Numbered from the stretch's first letter, positions 3,662 to 26,998 are shown. The stretch is DNA of 32,000 bases from Pseudidiomarina andamanensis (GCF_009734345.1 NZ_CP032551.1:1980001-2012000), one strand, 5' to 3'. Notes: generated by a model not told the origin, from the letters alone. Translations and numbers: made by a program.

Positions 3662-3770
3662 TGGCACACCCGACAGGAGTCGAACCTGTGACCTCTATCT
3701 CCGAAAGCAAATCACGGGTTCGGTAGTAAATCGATAAAGCTATATTGAGCAGGGGATTAAGCGGTGTTTT
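3662..3770 (+). repeat. Diverged copy of the tRNA-Arg 3' half (3662-3709) plus a conserved island-end flank (3710-3770)
   Basis: TGGCACACCCGACAGGAGTCGAACCTGTGACCTCTATCTCCGAAAGCA differs from 26922-26970 at six positions, including a 1-nt gap. The flank is about 80% identical (48/60 by hand) to 10249-10308. Confidence 0.85.
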
Positions 3771-3910
3771 GGTTCTCAAGCTAAACATCCGTATGGAACT
3801 TAAACGCTAATAAAGCATTCCGCACCATTAATGGTTACGGGGTAACGCGTTATAAACGTGAGCCATATTATTTCAGGAAAATAAAAAAGGAATTTAAGGA
3901 GCCCTTGGCA

Positions 3911-4600
3911 ATGCGTCATAAGTTAATTTTATTGGCAGGTTTGTCAGCATTGTACTTTATCGCTGGCTGTGCTGTACCAATAGTCTACTTAAACGATTAT
4001 GAGCTTGAAGAAAGCAACTTTGAAAAGGTAAAAAACGCATTAGAAGAGAAGGGCTTTAAGGTAAATCGAGTGTCGTTAAAACCGCCTAGTAACATCCATG
4101 AATCTACAATCATAACCGGTTCGAAAGCGACCGTTGAACAGAACTATAATCAGATTATGCCGATTCTTGCAAGCTTAGGGTATTCAAACACGGATATTAC
4201 ATTCGTTGAGTCGGGAAATCACTGGTACCGTGGTGATAACATAGGTGTATACCTTTTTGATGATGGGGTTGGTGAAAAGCCCGAGAGGGAAATTATTGGT
4301 GAATACTCAAGCGATAATTGTGAATCGATGAAATCACTAATATTAAAAGCGGATGGCAATTTTAATGTTGCTTATACTTTTGGTGGTGAACTGTCCGGCG
4401 AATGGCAGATCATCTCGATGCCCTATGTGAATCTTTGGAATAAACGTACGGGTTTAAATTTTTACTATCAGATAGAGATAGAAGAGCAATCAGATTTCTC
4501 AGGTAAAGTAGATGTCATTACTTTAGTACCTCTTGATGATCAATCTCAGATTCGAGATTGTATATTTTACAAAGGTATTAGAAAGGGTAAAGCAATATGA
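3911..4600 (+). CDS. Lipoprotein of unknown function
   Basis: Signal peptide with lipobox (LYFIAGC). AAGGAG lies 9 nt upstream of the ATG at 3911, while the track's TTG at 3905 is too close to the SD. I recognise no family. The stop codon directly abuts the next tRNA-like repeat. Confidence 0.75.
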   Translation: MRHKLILLAGLSALYFIAGCAVPIVYLNDYELEESNFEKVKNALEEKGFKVNRVSLKPPSNIHESTIITGSKATVEQNYNQIMPILASLGYSNTDITFVESGNHWYRGDNIGVYLFDDGVGEKPEREIIGEYSSDNCESMKSLILKADGNFNVAYTFGGELSGEWQIISMPYVNLWNKRTGLNFYYQIEIEEQSDFSGKVDVITLVPLDDQSQIRDCIFYKGIRKGKAI

Positions 4601-4740
4601 TTCTCTCCCACAGGAATCGAGCCCGTGACCTCTGCTATCGTGATAGAGCATTTGTCAGGCATGATTAAAATCTCAGTTTAGAGGTAGAAAAAATGCCATC
4701 TAAGAAATCGTTCAACTACCGCTGGGGATTAAGCTGATGT
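4601..4740 (+). repeat. Strongly diverged tRNA-3'-half-like repeat (4601-4650) plus a gapped copy of the island-end flank
   Basis: TCTCCCACAGGAATCGAGCCCGTGACCTCTGC aligns with CACCCGACAGGAGTCGAACCTGTGACCTCTGC. Downstream, AAATCGTT and GGGGATTAAGC match the flank motifs of the other two copies. The flank overlaps the fic stop codon. Confidence 0.6.
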
Positions 4741-5811
4741 CATGAGTTTCATCAGGCGAGGATTCACAAATAGCTTTTCTTTACCTGAAGTTGTCTCTTC
4801 TAATATGCCAATTTCAACGAGCTGTTTAAGGTAAACAGAAGCGGTTTGACGCTTGGCGATATCGCGTTCCACTAAATTACTAATTCGACAATAAGGCTGC
4901 TCAAAAATCACTTGAACAAGCTCATAGCTGTATATTTTCGGTAATTGCTCGCGAATCCTGTTTGTAGTCTGCTCCATTAACGCTCGAATAGCGGCGATCT
5001 TCTCACAAGTCCAAAGCGACGTTTGCTCAACACCACGCAACATGAATACCAGCCAGTCTTCCCAGTTTTGTTTCTGAGTTACTTGATTCAGTAATCGGTA
5101 GTAATCTTGCTTGTGCGCAACAATGTAACGGCTAAGGTACAATATCGGCAGTGTTAAAAGCTTTTGCTCAATCAAATAGAGGACATTTAGGATTCTGCCA
5201 GTACGCCCATTGCCATCATAGAAGGGATGAATTGCTTCAAATTGATAGTGGCTCACCGCCATTTTTATCAGCGGATCGATAGTATCGGTGCCATGCAGAA
5301 ACTGCTCCCAATTACTGAGTAAATCGCGAATGACCTGTTCGCCGACCGGTGGTGTATAAACCACTTCATTTGTTGTTTGATTACCAATAATGGTGCCAGG
5401 TAGCTTCCGTAATTCCATCGCCGTATTCTTCAATGTACTACACACTTCAATGGCTGTTGTCGTACATAGAGGTTTGCGCTCTAACTGCGTGAAGCCTTGA
5501 TAGAGTGCTGTGCGATAACGAAGTGCTTCTTTGGTTGCTTGATCAGCACCGCTGTCTTGTTGTGCATATCGAAATAGTTGATCTGTTGTGGTGACGATAT
5601 TTTCAATTCTAGAACTGTCTTTTGCCTCTAAAAGAGGAAGCAAATTGATGAGCATACTTTGATTAGGGAGTAACGCACCAGCTTGTTTCAACTCGGCAAG
5701 CGCAGCGCGAGCAGAGATGCATGCCTTCAATACGTCGCGCGTCTCGATTTGCTCTAATTTCGGCGGTAACATAGGCAAATCGTTATAGGGTTGGTCAGCT
5801 TGCCAAGTCAT
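4729..5811 (-). CDS. Fic-family protein (AMPylase-type) with an N-terminal inhibitory-helix motif and a C-terminal wHTH-like tail
   Basis: Fic motif HPFYDGNGRTGR. (S/T)xxxE(G/N) inhibitory motif SSRIEN. The N-terminus MTWQADQPYNDLPMLPP is typical of this family. I prefer the ATG at 5811 (AGGA 8 nt upstream) over the track's GTG at 5838. Confidence 0.9.
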   Translation of the reverse strand: MTWQADQPYNDLPMLPPKLEQIETRDVLKACISARAALAELKQAGALLPNQSMLINLLPLLEAKDSSRIENIVTTTDQLFRYAQQDSGADQATKEALRYRTALYQGFTQLERKPLCTTTAIEVCSTLKNTAMELRKLPGTIIGNQTTNEVVYTPPVGEQVIRDLLSNWEQFLHGTDTIDPLIKMAVSHYQFEAIHPFYDGNGRTGRILNVLYLIEQKLLTLPILYLSRYIVAHKQDYYRLLNQVTQKQNWEDWLVFMLRGVEQTSLWTCEKIAAIRALMEQTTNRIREQLPKIYSYELVQVIFEQPYCRISNLVERDIAKRQTASVYLKQLVEIGILEETTSGKEKLFVNPRLMKLMTSA

Positions 5812-5855
5812 GTTTAAATTCCTTTGGAAATTCGACACATTATGATGTTGTTTGT

Positions 5856-25292: not shown

Positions 25293-25365
25293 AGATAGAC
25301 TCCTCAGTCATATTACTGCGTAAAATAATGATTTTTTTGCGCTGCTATAGCAGCTTATTAGGCAG

Positions 25366-25710
25366 TTATGAGGAGATGGGAGGCCGGAACAGCGGAGATG
25401 ATAGAGGGTTAGTGTAAAACTCAGTATACCCAGGACGTATTGTGCCCATTCGTGGTAACGCGAGAGTTTTTTCAGTCTTCATGGCATATAAATGAAATGA
25501 GCCATGGCAGTGACAGCAGTGATGGCAGTCAAAGCTGATTTCTCCACTTTTAGGGAGATTGCGCTTATCGATGTGGGATTCGTCATGCTCAAAATTGAGG
25601 TGTTGCTCAGAAGAGGACTGGTGAGATTGATGCACATCAGCAACCGCCTGACTGATTTGAGTCAGAACAGCAACAAGCACCAGTATTAAAAATCCGAGTC
25701 TAAGCATCAT
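25366..25710 (-). CDS. Small exported His/Cys-rich protein (CzcI-like position)
   Basis: 114 aa with an N-terminal hydrophobic signal. Motifs HQSHQSS, HDESH and CHHCCHCHGSFH. It is the first gene of the czc cluster, where CzcI sits in the classical czc operon. I cannot verify sequence homology. Confidence 0.45.
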   Translation of the reverse strand: MMLRLGFLILVLVAVLTQISQAVADVHQSHQSSSEQHLNFEHDESHIDKRNLPKSGEISFDCHHCCHCHGSFHLYAMKTEKTLALPRMGTIRPGYTEFYTNPLSSPLFRPPISS

Positions 25711-25769
25711 TACCTACAGTTCTAAATAAGCAGCTTAACGGTACACTAATTAAAAATAGTTCTCAACTA

Positions 25770-26732
25770 GTGGCGATTCACACAAATACTTCTGCTGTAT
25801 ACCTATGCACGAATCAAGAGCTTCAGGTAGAAGCGCGAGAAGAAGGTTTTGATTTTATATTTGGTACCGATGTGGCAAATAATGAATTGAGTTTTTTATT
25901 CGAGTCAAAATTCGAGCCTTACCAAGAATATTCAAGGACAGACATTAAAGGAATTGATCTCGTCCTAAAACTCGGTGACTCATTTATTCGAGCCTTGGAA
26001 GTTAAGCTTACAGTTATTCCGGACAATACCACTGCAAACGACAGAGAGTCTGACTGGGGTACCGAGTTGGTGATTAGACCTGCAAGTACTTCTTACGCCG
26101 CGCTAGGTATTTTTGATTCGATAAAACCATTTAGAGCGAGACTAAAGGAAATCTTAGAGCCTACCTGTTCGACAATTCAACATTGGGATAATACTGTTGA
26201 AATGTTGAGTAAAAGGGAGGAAATCATTGGGTGTTTAAATAAAATATTTACAGAGTTTAAAGACTACCAAAAACCTTTTTTATTACATCCAATATGGAAG
26301 ACATTGGGTAAGTCACCGATTATTGATAAGGGTAATGCATATGATATTTTTGTTTGGAGCGACTTTGCTATTTGCCGTACCTTTATTGATTGCGCATCAA
26401 GAGAGCGAGATGTGGGGAAAGTTACAAGGCTTTATAGATCAACGCTAAGGCTTGCAAGGATTCTTTACGAACTAACACAAACAGATAAGGTAAATATTCA
26501 TAATATTTATACTCAAATGGCTTTCAACCTGCAGACTGACAAAGAATTTGCTCTGAATGGTAAAATGACTCGTAGATTTATGAATCATCCTCGACGTTAT
26601 AATCCAATTATGAAATTATCTAGCATCACAAATGTGATTATGAATGGCGGGCACAAAGAGTTAAGTCCAGAACGTCGTTTTGATCAAAGCTTGTATTATA
26701 CAGCACAGGAATTATTTAAAGACGATGCTTAA
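25770..26732 (+). CDS. PD-(D/E)XK nuclease-like protein (type II restriction-endonuclease-like), orphan
   Basis: Candidate catalytic core GIDLVLKLGDSFIRALEVKLT (D...E-x-K). The gene is AT-rich. Its only canonical start is a GTG without a visible SD. No methyltransferase gene is adjacent. The family assignment is tentative. Confidence 0.55.
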   Translation: MAIHTNTSAVYLCTNQELQVEAREEGFDFIFGTDVANNELSFLFESKFEPYQEYSRTDIKGIDLVLKLGDSFIRALEVKLTVIPDNTTANDRESDWGTELVIRPASTSYAALGIFDSIKPFRARLKEILEPTCSTIQHWDNTVEMLSKREEIIGCLNKIFTEFKDYQKPFLLHPIWKTLGKSPIIDKGNAYDIFVWSDFAICRTFIDCASRERDVGKVTRLYRSTLRLARILYELTQTDKVNIHNIYTQMAFNLQTDKEFALNGKMTRRFMNHPRRYNPIMKLSSITNVIMNGGHKELSPERRFDQSLYYTAQELFKDDA

Positions 26733-26921
26733 AATTGAATATTGTTGTTTATGCTTAAGAGAAAACGACAGAATTTGCTTCCTAAATCGATTAAGAGCAA
26801 GAATGTTGTGCGAAGGTCATGAAACTTGGAGGCAAAACCTTAACAAGTCACAATTTTGGCACAGAATCGGCACAAAAGCCTCAAAGTTAGTACTTGCTAT
26901 CAATGTCAGGCTATAGAATTA

Positions 26922-26998
26922 TGGCGCACCCGACAGGAGTCGAACCTGTGACCTCTGCCTCCGGAGGGCAGCGCTCTATCCAGCTGAGCTACGGGTGC
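26922..26998 (-). tRNA. tRNA-Arg (anticodon CCG), 77 nt with encoded CCA
   Basis: The reverse complement is GCACCCGTAGCTCAGCTGGATAGAGCGCTGCCCTCCGGAGGCAGAGGTCACAGGTTCGACTCCTGTCGGGTGCGCCA. The cloverleaf folds (acceptor GCACCCG/CGGGTGC, anticodon loop CUCCGGA). It is very close to E. coli argX as I recall it. Confidence 0.97.

Follow-up and report, generated by a model that had tools for sequence, protein, structure and literature searches.

A probable tandem accretion array of recombinase-free islands at tRNA-Arg(CCG) in Pseudidiomarina andamanensis

The window analysed here is a stretch of 32,000 nucleotides of P. andamanensis DNA. A single tRNA is called in it by ARAGORN and Rfam, tRNA-Arg(CCG), and at least four foreign islands are stacked behind this gene. 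The largest unit of the array, island A, carries metal-resistance and phage-defence genes. The units at 1731-10198 are decayed: they have a mutated core, arms that are cut short and remnants of genes. The fourth island is the hipBA unit (1782-3661), which has lost its own distal end. The first-pass annotation had begun the array at 3662; the array is present, but it starts further left, at about 1731. The tRNA is flanked by genes for a BNR protein and a serine hydrolase and by cydAB. The features are as follows, with the strand where one applies.

1731..3660, +: island D, distal end lost
1731-1783: RHS-related remnant, island D
1782-1858: abiEii 5' remnant, island D
1978-2220: hipB, island D (Pfam HTH)
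2214-3524: hipA, island D (Pfam HipA)
3525-3660: P' arm of island D, with TTTGGTCCCA at 3605-3614
3661..3710, -: displaced tRNA 3' fragment, seven substitutions, core palindrome destroyed
3711..4600, +: island C
3711-3772: truncated P arm, island C (48/60 to 10249-10308)
3905-4600, +: lipoprotein gene, island C (lipoprotein signal peptide)
4601..4650, -: old att copy, a strongly decayed tRNA-like 3' fragment
4651..10198: island B, composite and decayed
4704-4733: degenerate arm after the 4601-4650 fragment
4729-5838, -: SoFic, island B (PADLOC, E = 1.6e-125)
5860-5954: palindrome segment of 95 nt, island B
5975-6027: RHS-related remnant, island B
6426-7343, -: TPR protein, island B
7365-8201, -: unknown 278-aa ORF, island B
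8166-9392, +: HisKA_3 kinase of a two-component system, island B (Pfam)
9389-10069, +: LuxR-type response regulator of a two-component system, island B (Pfam)
10164-10199: truncated P' arm, island B
10199..10248, -: displaced tRNA 3' fragment, attR core of island A and junction with island B, 100% identical to the tRNA
10249-26921: island A, proximal unit, 16.7 kb, with perfect repeats and complete arms
10249..10523: distal (P) arm of island A, non-coding, about 275 nt
10362-10373: TTGGTCACAGAA within the distal arm of island A
10453-10470: palindrome GGTGGAAAAAATTCCACC closing the distal arm of island A
10249..26732: cargo of island A (Pfam and PADLOC)
10554-12232, -: abiEii/abiEi (AbiE), island A
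12856-14657, +: GmrSD-like pseudogene, frameshifted, island A
14759-16902, -: merA/P/T, island A
16914-17399, +: merR, island A
17451-19624, -: ynfA and two CDF genes, island A
19684-25292, -: czcA/B/C, island A
25366-25710, -: 114-aa ORF, island A
25770-26732, +: HindVP endonuclease, island A (PF09519, E = 1e-84)
26733..26921: proximal (P') arm of island A, from the tRNA 3' end to the HindVP stop codon
26852-26878: direct half-repeats TTTTGGCACAGAA / TCGGCACAAAAG in the proximal arm of island A
26921-26970: att repeat, proximal copy (attL core), the 3' 50 nt of the tRNA
26922..26998, -: intact tRNA-Arg(CCG) (ARAGORN; Rfam tRNA, 67.8 bits)

One end of island A is the intact tRNA-Arg(CCG) and the other a displaced copy of its 3' part. 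The two had been reported as identical over 49 nt (10200-10248 and 26922-26970); all 49 positions agree and one extra base matches, giving an exact repeat of 50 nt (10199-10248; blastn E = 3e-19) that starts at the CCA end and takes in the entire anticodon stem. Further direct repeats of the tRNA 3' part lie at 3661-3710 and 4601-4650. The former, 86% identical to the tRNA, had been described as a copy with six differences over 3662-3709; it is related to the tRNA, but the differences number seven (41/48 identical), and four of the seven substitutions destroy the palindromic core, changing CCTCCGGAGG to TCTCCGAAAG. The fragment at 4601-4650 is about two-thirds identical overall, as first estimated, and is tRNA-like: its T-arm stretch (29 nt) matches at 25 positions, a score reached by none of 2000 shuffles. 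The module that includes it recurs in P. marina (L025) at 95.6% identity. The flanks at 3711-3770 and 10249-10308 do match at 48 of 60 positions, again with a score reached in 0 of 2000 shuffles, and the arm alignment of island C diverges after about 110 nt. The flank similarity proposed at 4651-4740 is weak: two short motifs, AAATCGTTCAA and GCTGGGGATTAAGC, recur there in the same order, and 12 of 2000 shuffles reach the score of the better one.

Parts of the distal units recur in other loci. The abiEii remnant of island D (1782-1855) is 94-97% identical in ten loci, and 1850-3703 is 95.2% identical to L007, in which the unit has fragments on both sides. The lipoprotein ORF of island C had no match in Pfam. 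A segment of island B (9202-10097) is 98.8-100% identical in L030 and L036, where a different island follows, and the last 36 nt of island B are common to L039 and the ...CTCTGAAAnnCTTTGA arm class.

The distal arm of island A, which also contains TGACCTTTGCC, defines a wider family. Searching related genomes with the flank, as the first-pass annotation had proposed, returned the same fragment-plus-arm junction in 36 loci from Pseudidiomarina, Aliidiomarina and Idiomarina genomes and from metagenomes, with the arm 80-90% identical and conserved over about 275 nt. Of the loci with the motif GGTTCGGTNGTAAATCGNTAAAGC, 22 are from genomes and 14 from metagenomes, and nearly all of the named ones belong to Idiomarinaceae; in every locus the motif directly adjoins a tRNA-Arg(CCG) 3' fragment at its anticodon-stem end. 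Species-specific compensatory T-stem variants are seen in the fragments, which would be expected of displaced native halves. The arm was not found in plasmids, phages or IMG/VR. A flank of this kind could instead be a noncoding RNA gene or a toxin-antitoxin regulatory region that lies beside the tRNA fragment by coincidence, and the placement of abiEi_3 at a fixed 391-392 nt after the arm in four loci would suit such a role, as would the hairpin and T-run that end the arm in many loci. However, the arm has no Rfam match and shows no RNA covariation (the covariation term of the consensus folding is 0.4, with compensatory changes in 2 of 43 pairs), the window copy has no promoter or terminator call, and the genes that follow are unrelated and in either orientation (AbiEii on the minus strand, Fic, Abi_2, an ABC transporter, a lipoprotein). 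The arm also starts always exactly at the anticodon-stem boundary of the fragment, and we consider a coincidental RNA gene or regulatory flank the least credible of the explanations weighed here. Because the abiEii 5' end, a non-functional remnant, is as conserved across species as the arms, the conservation of the arm may reflect recent spread and not functional selection.

The proximal arm of island A, which is identical in L055-L060, contains a TTAGTAC block in addition to the half-repeats, and both are candidate arm-type integrase sites. The motif AATTTGGYCACAGAA matches 26852-26866 as well as 10359-10373, and TTGG(T)CACAGAA is found in both arms. Homologous proximal arms with two or three TTGGCACA repeats occur in L016, L018, L021, L026, L031, L032 and L037. 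The structured direct and inverted repeats in both arms are typical of integrase arm sites.

At least nine other assemblies contain island A (L050-L055 and L057-L060; 97.4-99.9% identity). Homology ends at 10199/10200 on the left and at 26971-27039 on the right, while the adjoining core genes are only 65-79% identical. In L051, L053 and L054 the homology ends at the 10199-10248 fragment, and in the cross-species cases unrelated sequence begins at 10199. The left context of the island takes four different forms among the assemblies and the right context five. In L059 another island, with no integrase visible, lies between island A and the tRNA; in L052 a 6,538-bp segment between 110-nt repeats is absent, the island D unit abuts island A directly and the single repeat copy is wholly of the island A type. 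The stretch 10199-15030 is 97.5% identical in P. aquimaris. The contents of the tRNA-Arg(CCG) hotspot differ among the window, L025, L026, L027, L028, L045 and L055-L060, and module limits in other genomes fall exactly on the repeats, so the expectation that presence/absence boundaries would coincide with them is borne out. These boundaries and the recurring junction support the original reading of repeated integration into one tRNA gene. The near-identity of island A, its exact ends and the divergence of the core genes indicate that it was recently mobile and is non-autonomous, and its occurrence alone beside the tRNA in several species shows that no visible helper accompanied it. Neither a circular junction nor an empty-site junction of island A was observed.

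The recombinase search covered 1517-26921 with Pfam profiles (large ORFs and six-frame segments of at least 40 aa) and found no tyrosine or serine recombinase, excisionase, transposase or relaxase domain and no integrase pseudogene in any frame, in agreement with the first-pass annotation. The gene beside the intact tRNA, earlier called nuclease-like, is indeed a HindVP-type restriction endonuclease. In 632 kb of related loci phmmer, a rougher screen than Pfam, returned no integrase and nothing at E<=0.4; divergent integrases may escape its seeds, and the loci are mostly 8-kb blocks, so that an integrase deeper inside a large island could escape as well. True Pfam coverage comprises the window and about 250 kb of loci, and PF00589 is absent from the precomputed Pfam lists of L001, L026-L029 and L045-L060. 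Across 60 loci, plasmids, phages and IMG/VR there was no integrase-bearing relative with these arms. A pseudogene remnant was not found, nor was a related ICE or IME with an integrase.

Integrase loss is common in old islands, and all of the units, island A included, might be immobile relics that lost their integrases by deletion and were inherited vertically. The clear decay of the distal units and the frameshift in the GmrSD-like gene fit this account, which we nevertheless judge very unlikely given the incongruence between island A and its adjacent core genes, the varied array contexts and positions, the perfect att repeats and the lack of an integrase pseudogene. Island A is intact and has spread recently without a recombinase, and it is therefore probably moved by functions encoded elsewhere; no integrase for these sites was identified anywhere, and the trans-acting enzyme is putative. 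The first-pass annotation had offered movement in trans or decay as alternatives, and both appear to apply, the former to island A and the latter to 1731-10198.

Spread could also have proceeded without any integrase, by uptake (for example natural transformation) and RecA recombination on the tRNA, the 50-nt fragments and the 275-nt arms, the original duplications being the ancient work of integrases since lost. The 632 kb of arrays without an integrase would be accommodated, and the arms are similar enough between arrays to support recombination; the window and L052 differ by a segment bounded by direct repeats, the L030/L036 junction has a microhomology deletion, and near-identical Alteromonas cassettes occur across species with no integrase named (PMC4898812). 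In the cross-species cases, however, the sole shared DNA is the 77-bp tRNA on the right and the 50-nt fragment on the left, so that a double crossover would be confined to about 27 and 50 bp. L052 has a single copy that is not chimeric, and the arm repeats, direct and inverted, are of the integrase-site type. We regard integrase-free spread as unlikely.

The interpretation that we favour, and consider probable, is that 1731-26998 is a tandem accretion array of non-autonomous units at tRNA-Arg(CCG), with island A integrated by an outside integrase. The junctions suggest that circular elements of an Idiomarinaceae-specific att family would recombine with the tRNA gene, the crossover falling inside the 50-bp block between the anticodon stem and the CCA end. 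Each newcomer would supply a replacement 3' half, and the older units and displaced 3' fragments would be pushed away from the gene. The unit plan is a distal arm of about 275 nt, cargo and a proximal arm of about 100-190 nt with short direct repeats. For island A the enzyme would be a tyrosine-type integrase encoded outside the array, supplied in trans by a helper element or the chromosome, or in cis by a helper that has integrated next to the island (accretion). The toxin-antitoxin and abortive-infection genes of the island ends, AbiE, HipBA and SoFic, probably stabilise the integrated units. More tentatively, and with some doubt on our part, the Idiomarinaceae might possess a tRNA-anchored cassette system of recombinase-free, arm-bounded islands (1.8-17 kb) served by a single integrase from another part of the genome or from a rare helper. 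Cassettes would then be inserted at and excised from tRNA-Arg(CCG) in a functionally integron-like manner, using tRNA-type att sites and arms, and multi-gene defence and metal-resistance islands would be carried between species.

Integrons gather recombinase-free cassettes with conserved sites at one locus, with the newest nearest the attachment point, and many of the cassettes have toxin-antitoxin genes. The array is alike in all of these respects, but no intI lies beside it, attC hairpin sites are absent, its sites are tRNA-derived with long arms and its units reach 17 kb with many genes each; it was not classed as an integron. A phage satellite was also rejected: P4-like elements and PICIs have genes for an integrase, replication and capsid hijacking, the array carries metal-resistance, restriction, toxin-antitoxin and two-component-system genes, and neither IMG/VR nor the phage records contain the arm. 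Classical tDNA-integrated genomic islands and prophages, as defined by Islander (PMC4383910), share the regenerated intact tRNA at one end, the displaced 3' fragment at the other and the identity block from anticodon stem to 3' end, but their defining island-encoded tyrosine integrase beside the tRNA is absent from every unit. The tycheposon-built islands of Prochlorococcus (Hackl et al.; 10.1101/2020.12.28.424599) likewise lie beside tRNA genes in marine bacteria; there too nothing but partial tRNA copies separates the elements, older elements are displaced inward as newer ones arrive, and degenerate remnants and additional partial tRNAs are present. A tycheposon is defined by having replication genes and a tyrosine or large serine recombinase of its own; the window has neither, and the cargo here is metal resistance and defence.

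The architecture has already been described in general terms. CIMEs and tandem accretion were originally reported from ICESt1-related elements of Streptococcus thermophilus (Pavlovic 2004; Bellanger 2011; PMC5704250). CIMEs have attL/attR flanks and no integration or transfer genes, and successive site-specific integration lines them up in tandem at a target gene's 3' end (PMC5704250). By definition they arise from an ICE or IME through deletion and move along with a functional element integrated next to them; for island A no related ICE or IME with an integrase was found, and the island that adjoins it in L059 shows no integrase. Island A likewise has attL and attR (perfect 50-nt repeats and both arms) and neither class of gene, but its host is Gram-negative and marine and it stands alone beside the tRNA in several species. 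In Alteromonas, a related marine gammaproteobacterial lineage, additive flexible genomic islands occupy tRNA hotspots (Lopez-Perez and Rodriguez-Valera; PMC4898812) and are described as variable cassette stacks at a fixed tRNA site in related genomes, with a partial tRNA direct repeat after cassettes and near-identical cassettes (czc, toxin systems) in divergent species. The tRNA-Arg(CCG) hotspot with its different cassette sets, and the near-identical island A in divergent species, show the same pattern. Unlike in that work, the att arms are here resolved to the nucleotide and followed through a family, the absence of a recombinase from the array was explicitly tested and the target, tRNA-Arg(CCG), is not among the tRNA targets named in the passages of PMC4898812 consulted. 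Taken together, the match to the Alteromonas additive islands and to CIME-like elements places the array in a known kind, tandem accretion at a tDNA hotspot.

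The only tRNA gene in the window is tRNA-Arg(CCG), at 26922-26998 on the minus strand. Nucleotides 10199-10248 repeat its 3' part exactly over 50 nt, an interval that starts at the CCA end and takes in the whole anticodon stem (blastn E = 3e-19), one base more than the 49 nt (10200-10248) recognized in the first-pass annotation. The diverged copy placed there at 3662-3709 is present, with seven substitutions rather than the six reported (41/48 matches over that range); four of the seven abolish the palindromic core CCTCCGGAGG of the 3661-3710 copy. The tRNA-like copy proposed at 4601-4650 is also real (25/29 matches over a T-arm stretch, a score reached by 0/2000 shuffles) and is far more decayed than that at 3661-3710. 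The flanks 3711-3770 and 10249-10308 match at 48 of 60 positions, exactly as claimed, and of the similarity described at 4651-4740 two short motifs in the same order are found and nothing beyond those. The gene adjoining the tRNA, described as nuclease-like and not an integrase, encodes a HindVP-type restriction endonuclease (Pfam). The repeat and flank measurements therefore confirm the earlier observation with minor corrections.

Gene and repeat content of the window
1-1517: TonB-dependent receptor gene, core genome, running off the left end of the window (Pfam/PADLOC)
1782-1858: abiEii 5' remnant (Pfam/PADLOC)
1978-3524: hipBA (Pfam/PADLOC)
3661-3710: tRNA fragment
3905-4600: lipoprotein gene
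4601-4650: tRNA fragment
4729-5838: SoFic (Pfam/PADLOC)
After SoFic, up to 10069: TPR protein, unknown ORF, HisKA_3 kinase, LuxR-type regulator
10199-10248: tRNA fragment
10554-12232: abiEii/abiEi
12856-14657: GmrSD/HEC-05-like defence gene, split
Between the GmrSD-like gene and a 114-aa ORF: merAPT, merR, ynfA, two CDF genes, czcABC
25770-26732: HindVP-type restriction endonuclease gene, preceded by the 114-aa ORF
26922-26998, minus strand: tRNA-Arg(CCG)
Right side of the window, after the tRNA: core genes for a BNR protein, a serine hydrolase and cydBA

The right-hand flank of the repeats belongs to a wider family. Two loci of assembly GCA_031624335.1 (L001 and L049) are 100% identical to the window, and, among named species, Pseudidiomarina gelatinasegens and P. 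marina are its nearest relatives. The flank motif GGTTCGGTNGTAAATCGNTAAAGC was found at 22 loci in a scan of one genome per species, nearly all in Pseudidiomarina, Aliidiomarina and Idiomarina, and at 14 further loci in a metagenome scan; in every case it adjoins the anticodon-stem end of a tRNA-Arg(CCG) 3' fragment. These fragments bear species-specific T-stem variants with compensatory changes, as would be expected of displaced native 3' halves. About 275 nt of the flank are conserved at 80-90% identity, with a terminal palindrome GGTGGAAAAAATTCCACC. An RNA was considered and rejected, as the flank has neither an Rfam match nor covariation, and no promoter or terminator is predicted in the window copy. 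Because the genes that follow are in addition unrelated between loci, and lie in either orientation, the flank was read as the distal arm of an att site.

The proximal arms, on the other side of the fragments and tRNAs, contain two to three short direct repeats of the types TTGGCACA, TGGTCCCA or TGTGGGAC, together with a TTAGTTAGT..CAC block. In island A, the tRNA-proximal unit (10249-26921), TTGG(T)CACAGAA is present in both arms (10362-10373 and 26855-26866), and for this reason the idea that the proximal arms form two families, unrelated to one another and not matching the distal arm, was dropped for this island. Judged from the established architecture of attP sites, arm-type sites bound by a lambda-like tyrosine integrase would be laid out in this way, and the repeats are candidate sites. 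Xer/dif-type integration was considered because the acceptor end reads GGTGCGCCA, and was rejected by eye: the XerD arm is missing, and it is at the anticodon stem that both the block of identity and the crossover are located.

Other arrangements of core and arm were also observed. In P. atlantica (L007, oriented 6728-6900), the identity of the tRNA fragment on the right side of the hipBA unit ends with CCTCCGGAG, beyond which lies a different arm, TAAATAGCGACTGG..., containing TTGGCACAAG; this is a second distal-arm family with the same core, and it puts the crossover at or left of the anticodon loop. The Aliidiomarina-type loci L004 (1851-2022), L020 (1434-1606) and L038 (about 4536-4713, window orientation) have the distal arm, with a partial core ..ACCTCCGGAGGGCAG, just ~48 nt upstream of an intact tRNA-Arg(CCG) instead of beside a 3' fragment; this may be what decay has left of the 3' half of an earlier tandem tRNA copy. 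In L024, L034, L042, L017 and L025, some fragments to the left of the arm motif are cut at the T-loop (..TTCGAACC..), and in three loci the cut joins a terminator-like hairpin AAAACGGC..GCCGTTTT beside hipA, a hint that the T-loop of tRNA-Arg(CCG) is used by another type of element or as a breakpoint.

Exact protein look-ups with AbiEi (DUF6088) and the HindVP endonuclease gave 12 loci, which come from other genomes and from metagenomes. In L050-L055 and L057-L060, island A is present at 97.4-99.9% identity, against only 65-79% for the core genes adjoining it. Homology ends on the left at 10199/10200 in L051 (GCA_002733825.1), L053 and L054, with unrelated DNA beyond, and on the right at 26971-27039 in L055, L057, L058 (GCA_050750165.1), L059 and L060. 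In L059, what comes after island A is not the tRNA but a fragment with a further distal arm, which indicates that a newer island was inserted between island A and the tRNA gene. L052 has island A immediately beside the hipBA unit and the TonB receptor gene and lacks the 6,538 bp that lie between the 110-nt repeats of the window; its flank is 94.3% identical compared with 99.8% for island A. Island A, the newest unit in the array, is a discrete, intact, non-autonomous element that was recently transferred between species.

Compared with its intact counterpart in P. aquimaris (L012; 600 aa), the GmrSD/HEC-05-like gene of island A has lost 1 nt at 13276 and is thereby split; in L051, L053 and L054 it is unbroken (596 aa). 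The HindVP endonuclease gene has no neighbouring methyltransferase gene, its neighbours being the 114-aa ORF, for which no family match was found, and the att arm; even so, 83 index blocks list the identical protein. On the right side of the tRNA, L002 and L003, short contigs from separate sequencing runs that carry the identical serine hydrolase, stop at one and the same position, 27201, which falls within the BNR gene about 200 nt from the tRNA and suggests strain variation from that point.

The remaining modules also recur in new combinations. P. aquimaris has the segment 10199-15030 at 97.5% identity, its left neighbour being another one. In L030/L036 the kinase-regulator end of island B (4651-10198) recurs at 98.8-100% identity with a different island after it, and P. 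atlantica has the hipBA unit at 95.2% identity with fragments on both its sides. Since island A ends and modules reassort at the repeats, presence/absence boundaries coincide with them in the compared genomes; the case named at the outset as counter-evidence, boundaries that never coincide with repeats, does not hold. The proposal of repeated integration at one tRNA gene is thus borne out, and the array is the product of repeated site-specific integration at a single tDNA (tandem accretion). The older units are decaying: the core at 3661-3710 is mutated, the fragment at 4601-4650 is degenerate, one distal arm breaks off at about 3772, one proximal arm is cut down to 10164-10199, and the hipBA unit has lost its distal end.

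Several smaller remnants accompany these units. In the metagenome strain of L030/L036, a deletion of 138 nt relative to window 10098-10235, showing CTCTG microhomology, has taken out most of the tRNA fragment and fused the end of the regulator gene with the att core. The abiEii 5' remnant (74 nt) is 94-97% identical in ten loci of different species, so a non-functional remnant is widely spread. A ~50-nt repeat, consisting of a hairpin and then GGGGGATTACA, lies at 1731-1783 and 5975-6027 and, in diverged form, near 12515-12567. L009, L013 and L018 have matching sequence in the 5' part of their RHS-fragment ORFs (..FRGDY..), as does L014 at a site behind abiEii, and the repeat looks like a recurrent breakpoint remnant; its assignment at 1731-1783 and 5975-6027 as an abiEi_3 3' end was dropped owing to the match to the start of the RHS-fragment ORFs. 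A 95-nt segment with two GTCGAT..ATCGAC palindromes (5860-5954 and 12403-12496, 79% identical) lies upstream of SoFic in the window, L005 and L025, with an orphan copy in island A and L012, and is possibly an operator. L010, a 1987-nt contig labelled as a Flavobacteriaceae MAG and probably misbinned Idiomarinaceae DNA, holds a 1.8-kb unit between two tRNA-Arg fragments that contains only an arm, the abiEii remnant and an RHS-related remnant.

No recombinase, transposase, excisionase or relaxase domain was found by Pfam in any large ORF of the window. Six-frame segments outside called genes were concatenated with linkers and scanned in the same way; those of at least 40 aa in 1517-26921 gave no integrase pseudogene, only linker artefacts. 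The first-pass statement that the array holds no recombinase, which a profile match even to a frameshifted gene was to overturn, therefore stands. PF00589 and resolvase domains are absent from the precomputed Pfam lists of L001, L026-L029 and L045-L060. A rough phmmer screen of all 60 loci (632 kb) with six seeds (XerC, XerD, lambda Int, P4-like Int, Hin and Tn3 resolvase), weaker than Pfam and liable to miss divergent integrases, gave no match at E <= 0.4. No integrase lies within 8-10 kb of the tRNA in seven species. The distal arm was not found in plasmid or phage collections, where the tRNA part alone matches, and had zero matches in IMG/VR. These searches argue that the recombinase making the junctions is not encoded in the islands examined. 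A short ORF at 6073-6261 (..SRIKGIGVQTLYNWLDK..) is similar to the HTH found at the C-terminus of Hin-type invertases, or to that of a transposase, but only at noise level in phmmer (E = 2.8) and with no Pfam match.

Exact ends in unrelated contexts would be explained most economically by a trans-acting integrase or by an accreted helper acting in cis. Movement of island A purely by homologous recombination is rated lower, as it would require double crossovers within about 27 and 50 bp. Of the two explanations first offered, elements moved in trans and decayed remnants, both fit, each for different units: island A is non-autonomous and recently transferred, and the older units are decaying.

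Additive islands at tRNA genes make up much of the flexible genome of marine bacteria and, to our knowledge, the movement of their cassettes has rarely been pinned down. Island A (16.7 kb; metal resistance and defence) has no recombinase, its att arms are defined, and the evidence that it recently passed between species is clear; with it, the question of which enzyme, encoded where, serves a family of integrase-less islands becomes testable. If one trans-acting integrase serves the whole cassette family, such elements would systematically escape island detectors in which an integrase is obligatory. The direct outcome here is more modest: a well-documented and well-resolved example of tandem accretion of non-autonomous islands, which is of a known kind.

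The array resembles tycheposon islands in its stacked elements and partial tRNAs, but is without their hallmark recombinase (10.1101/2020.12.28.424599). CIMEs are defined as retaining attL and attR after the loss of integration and transfer genes (PMC5704250), and the units of the array fit this definition. In Alteromonas, additive flexible genomic islands occupy tRNA hotspots with a partial tRNA direct repeat after the cassettes, and near-identical cassettes, czc included, occur across species (PMC4898812); the array in the window matches this picture of hotspot, repeat and cassette.
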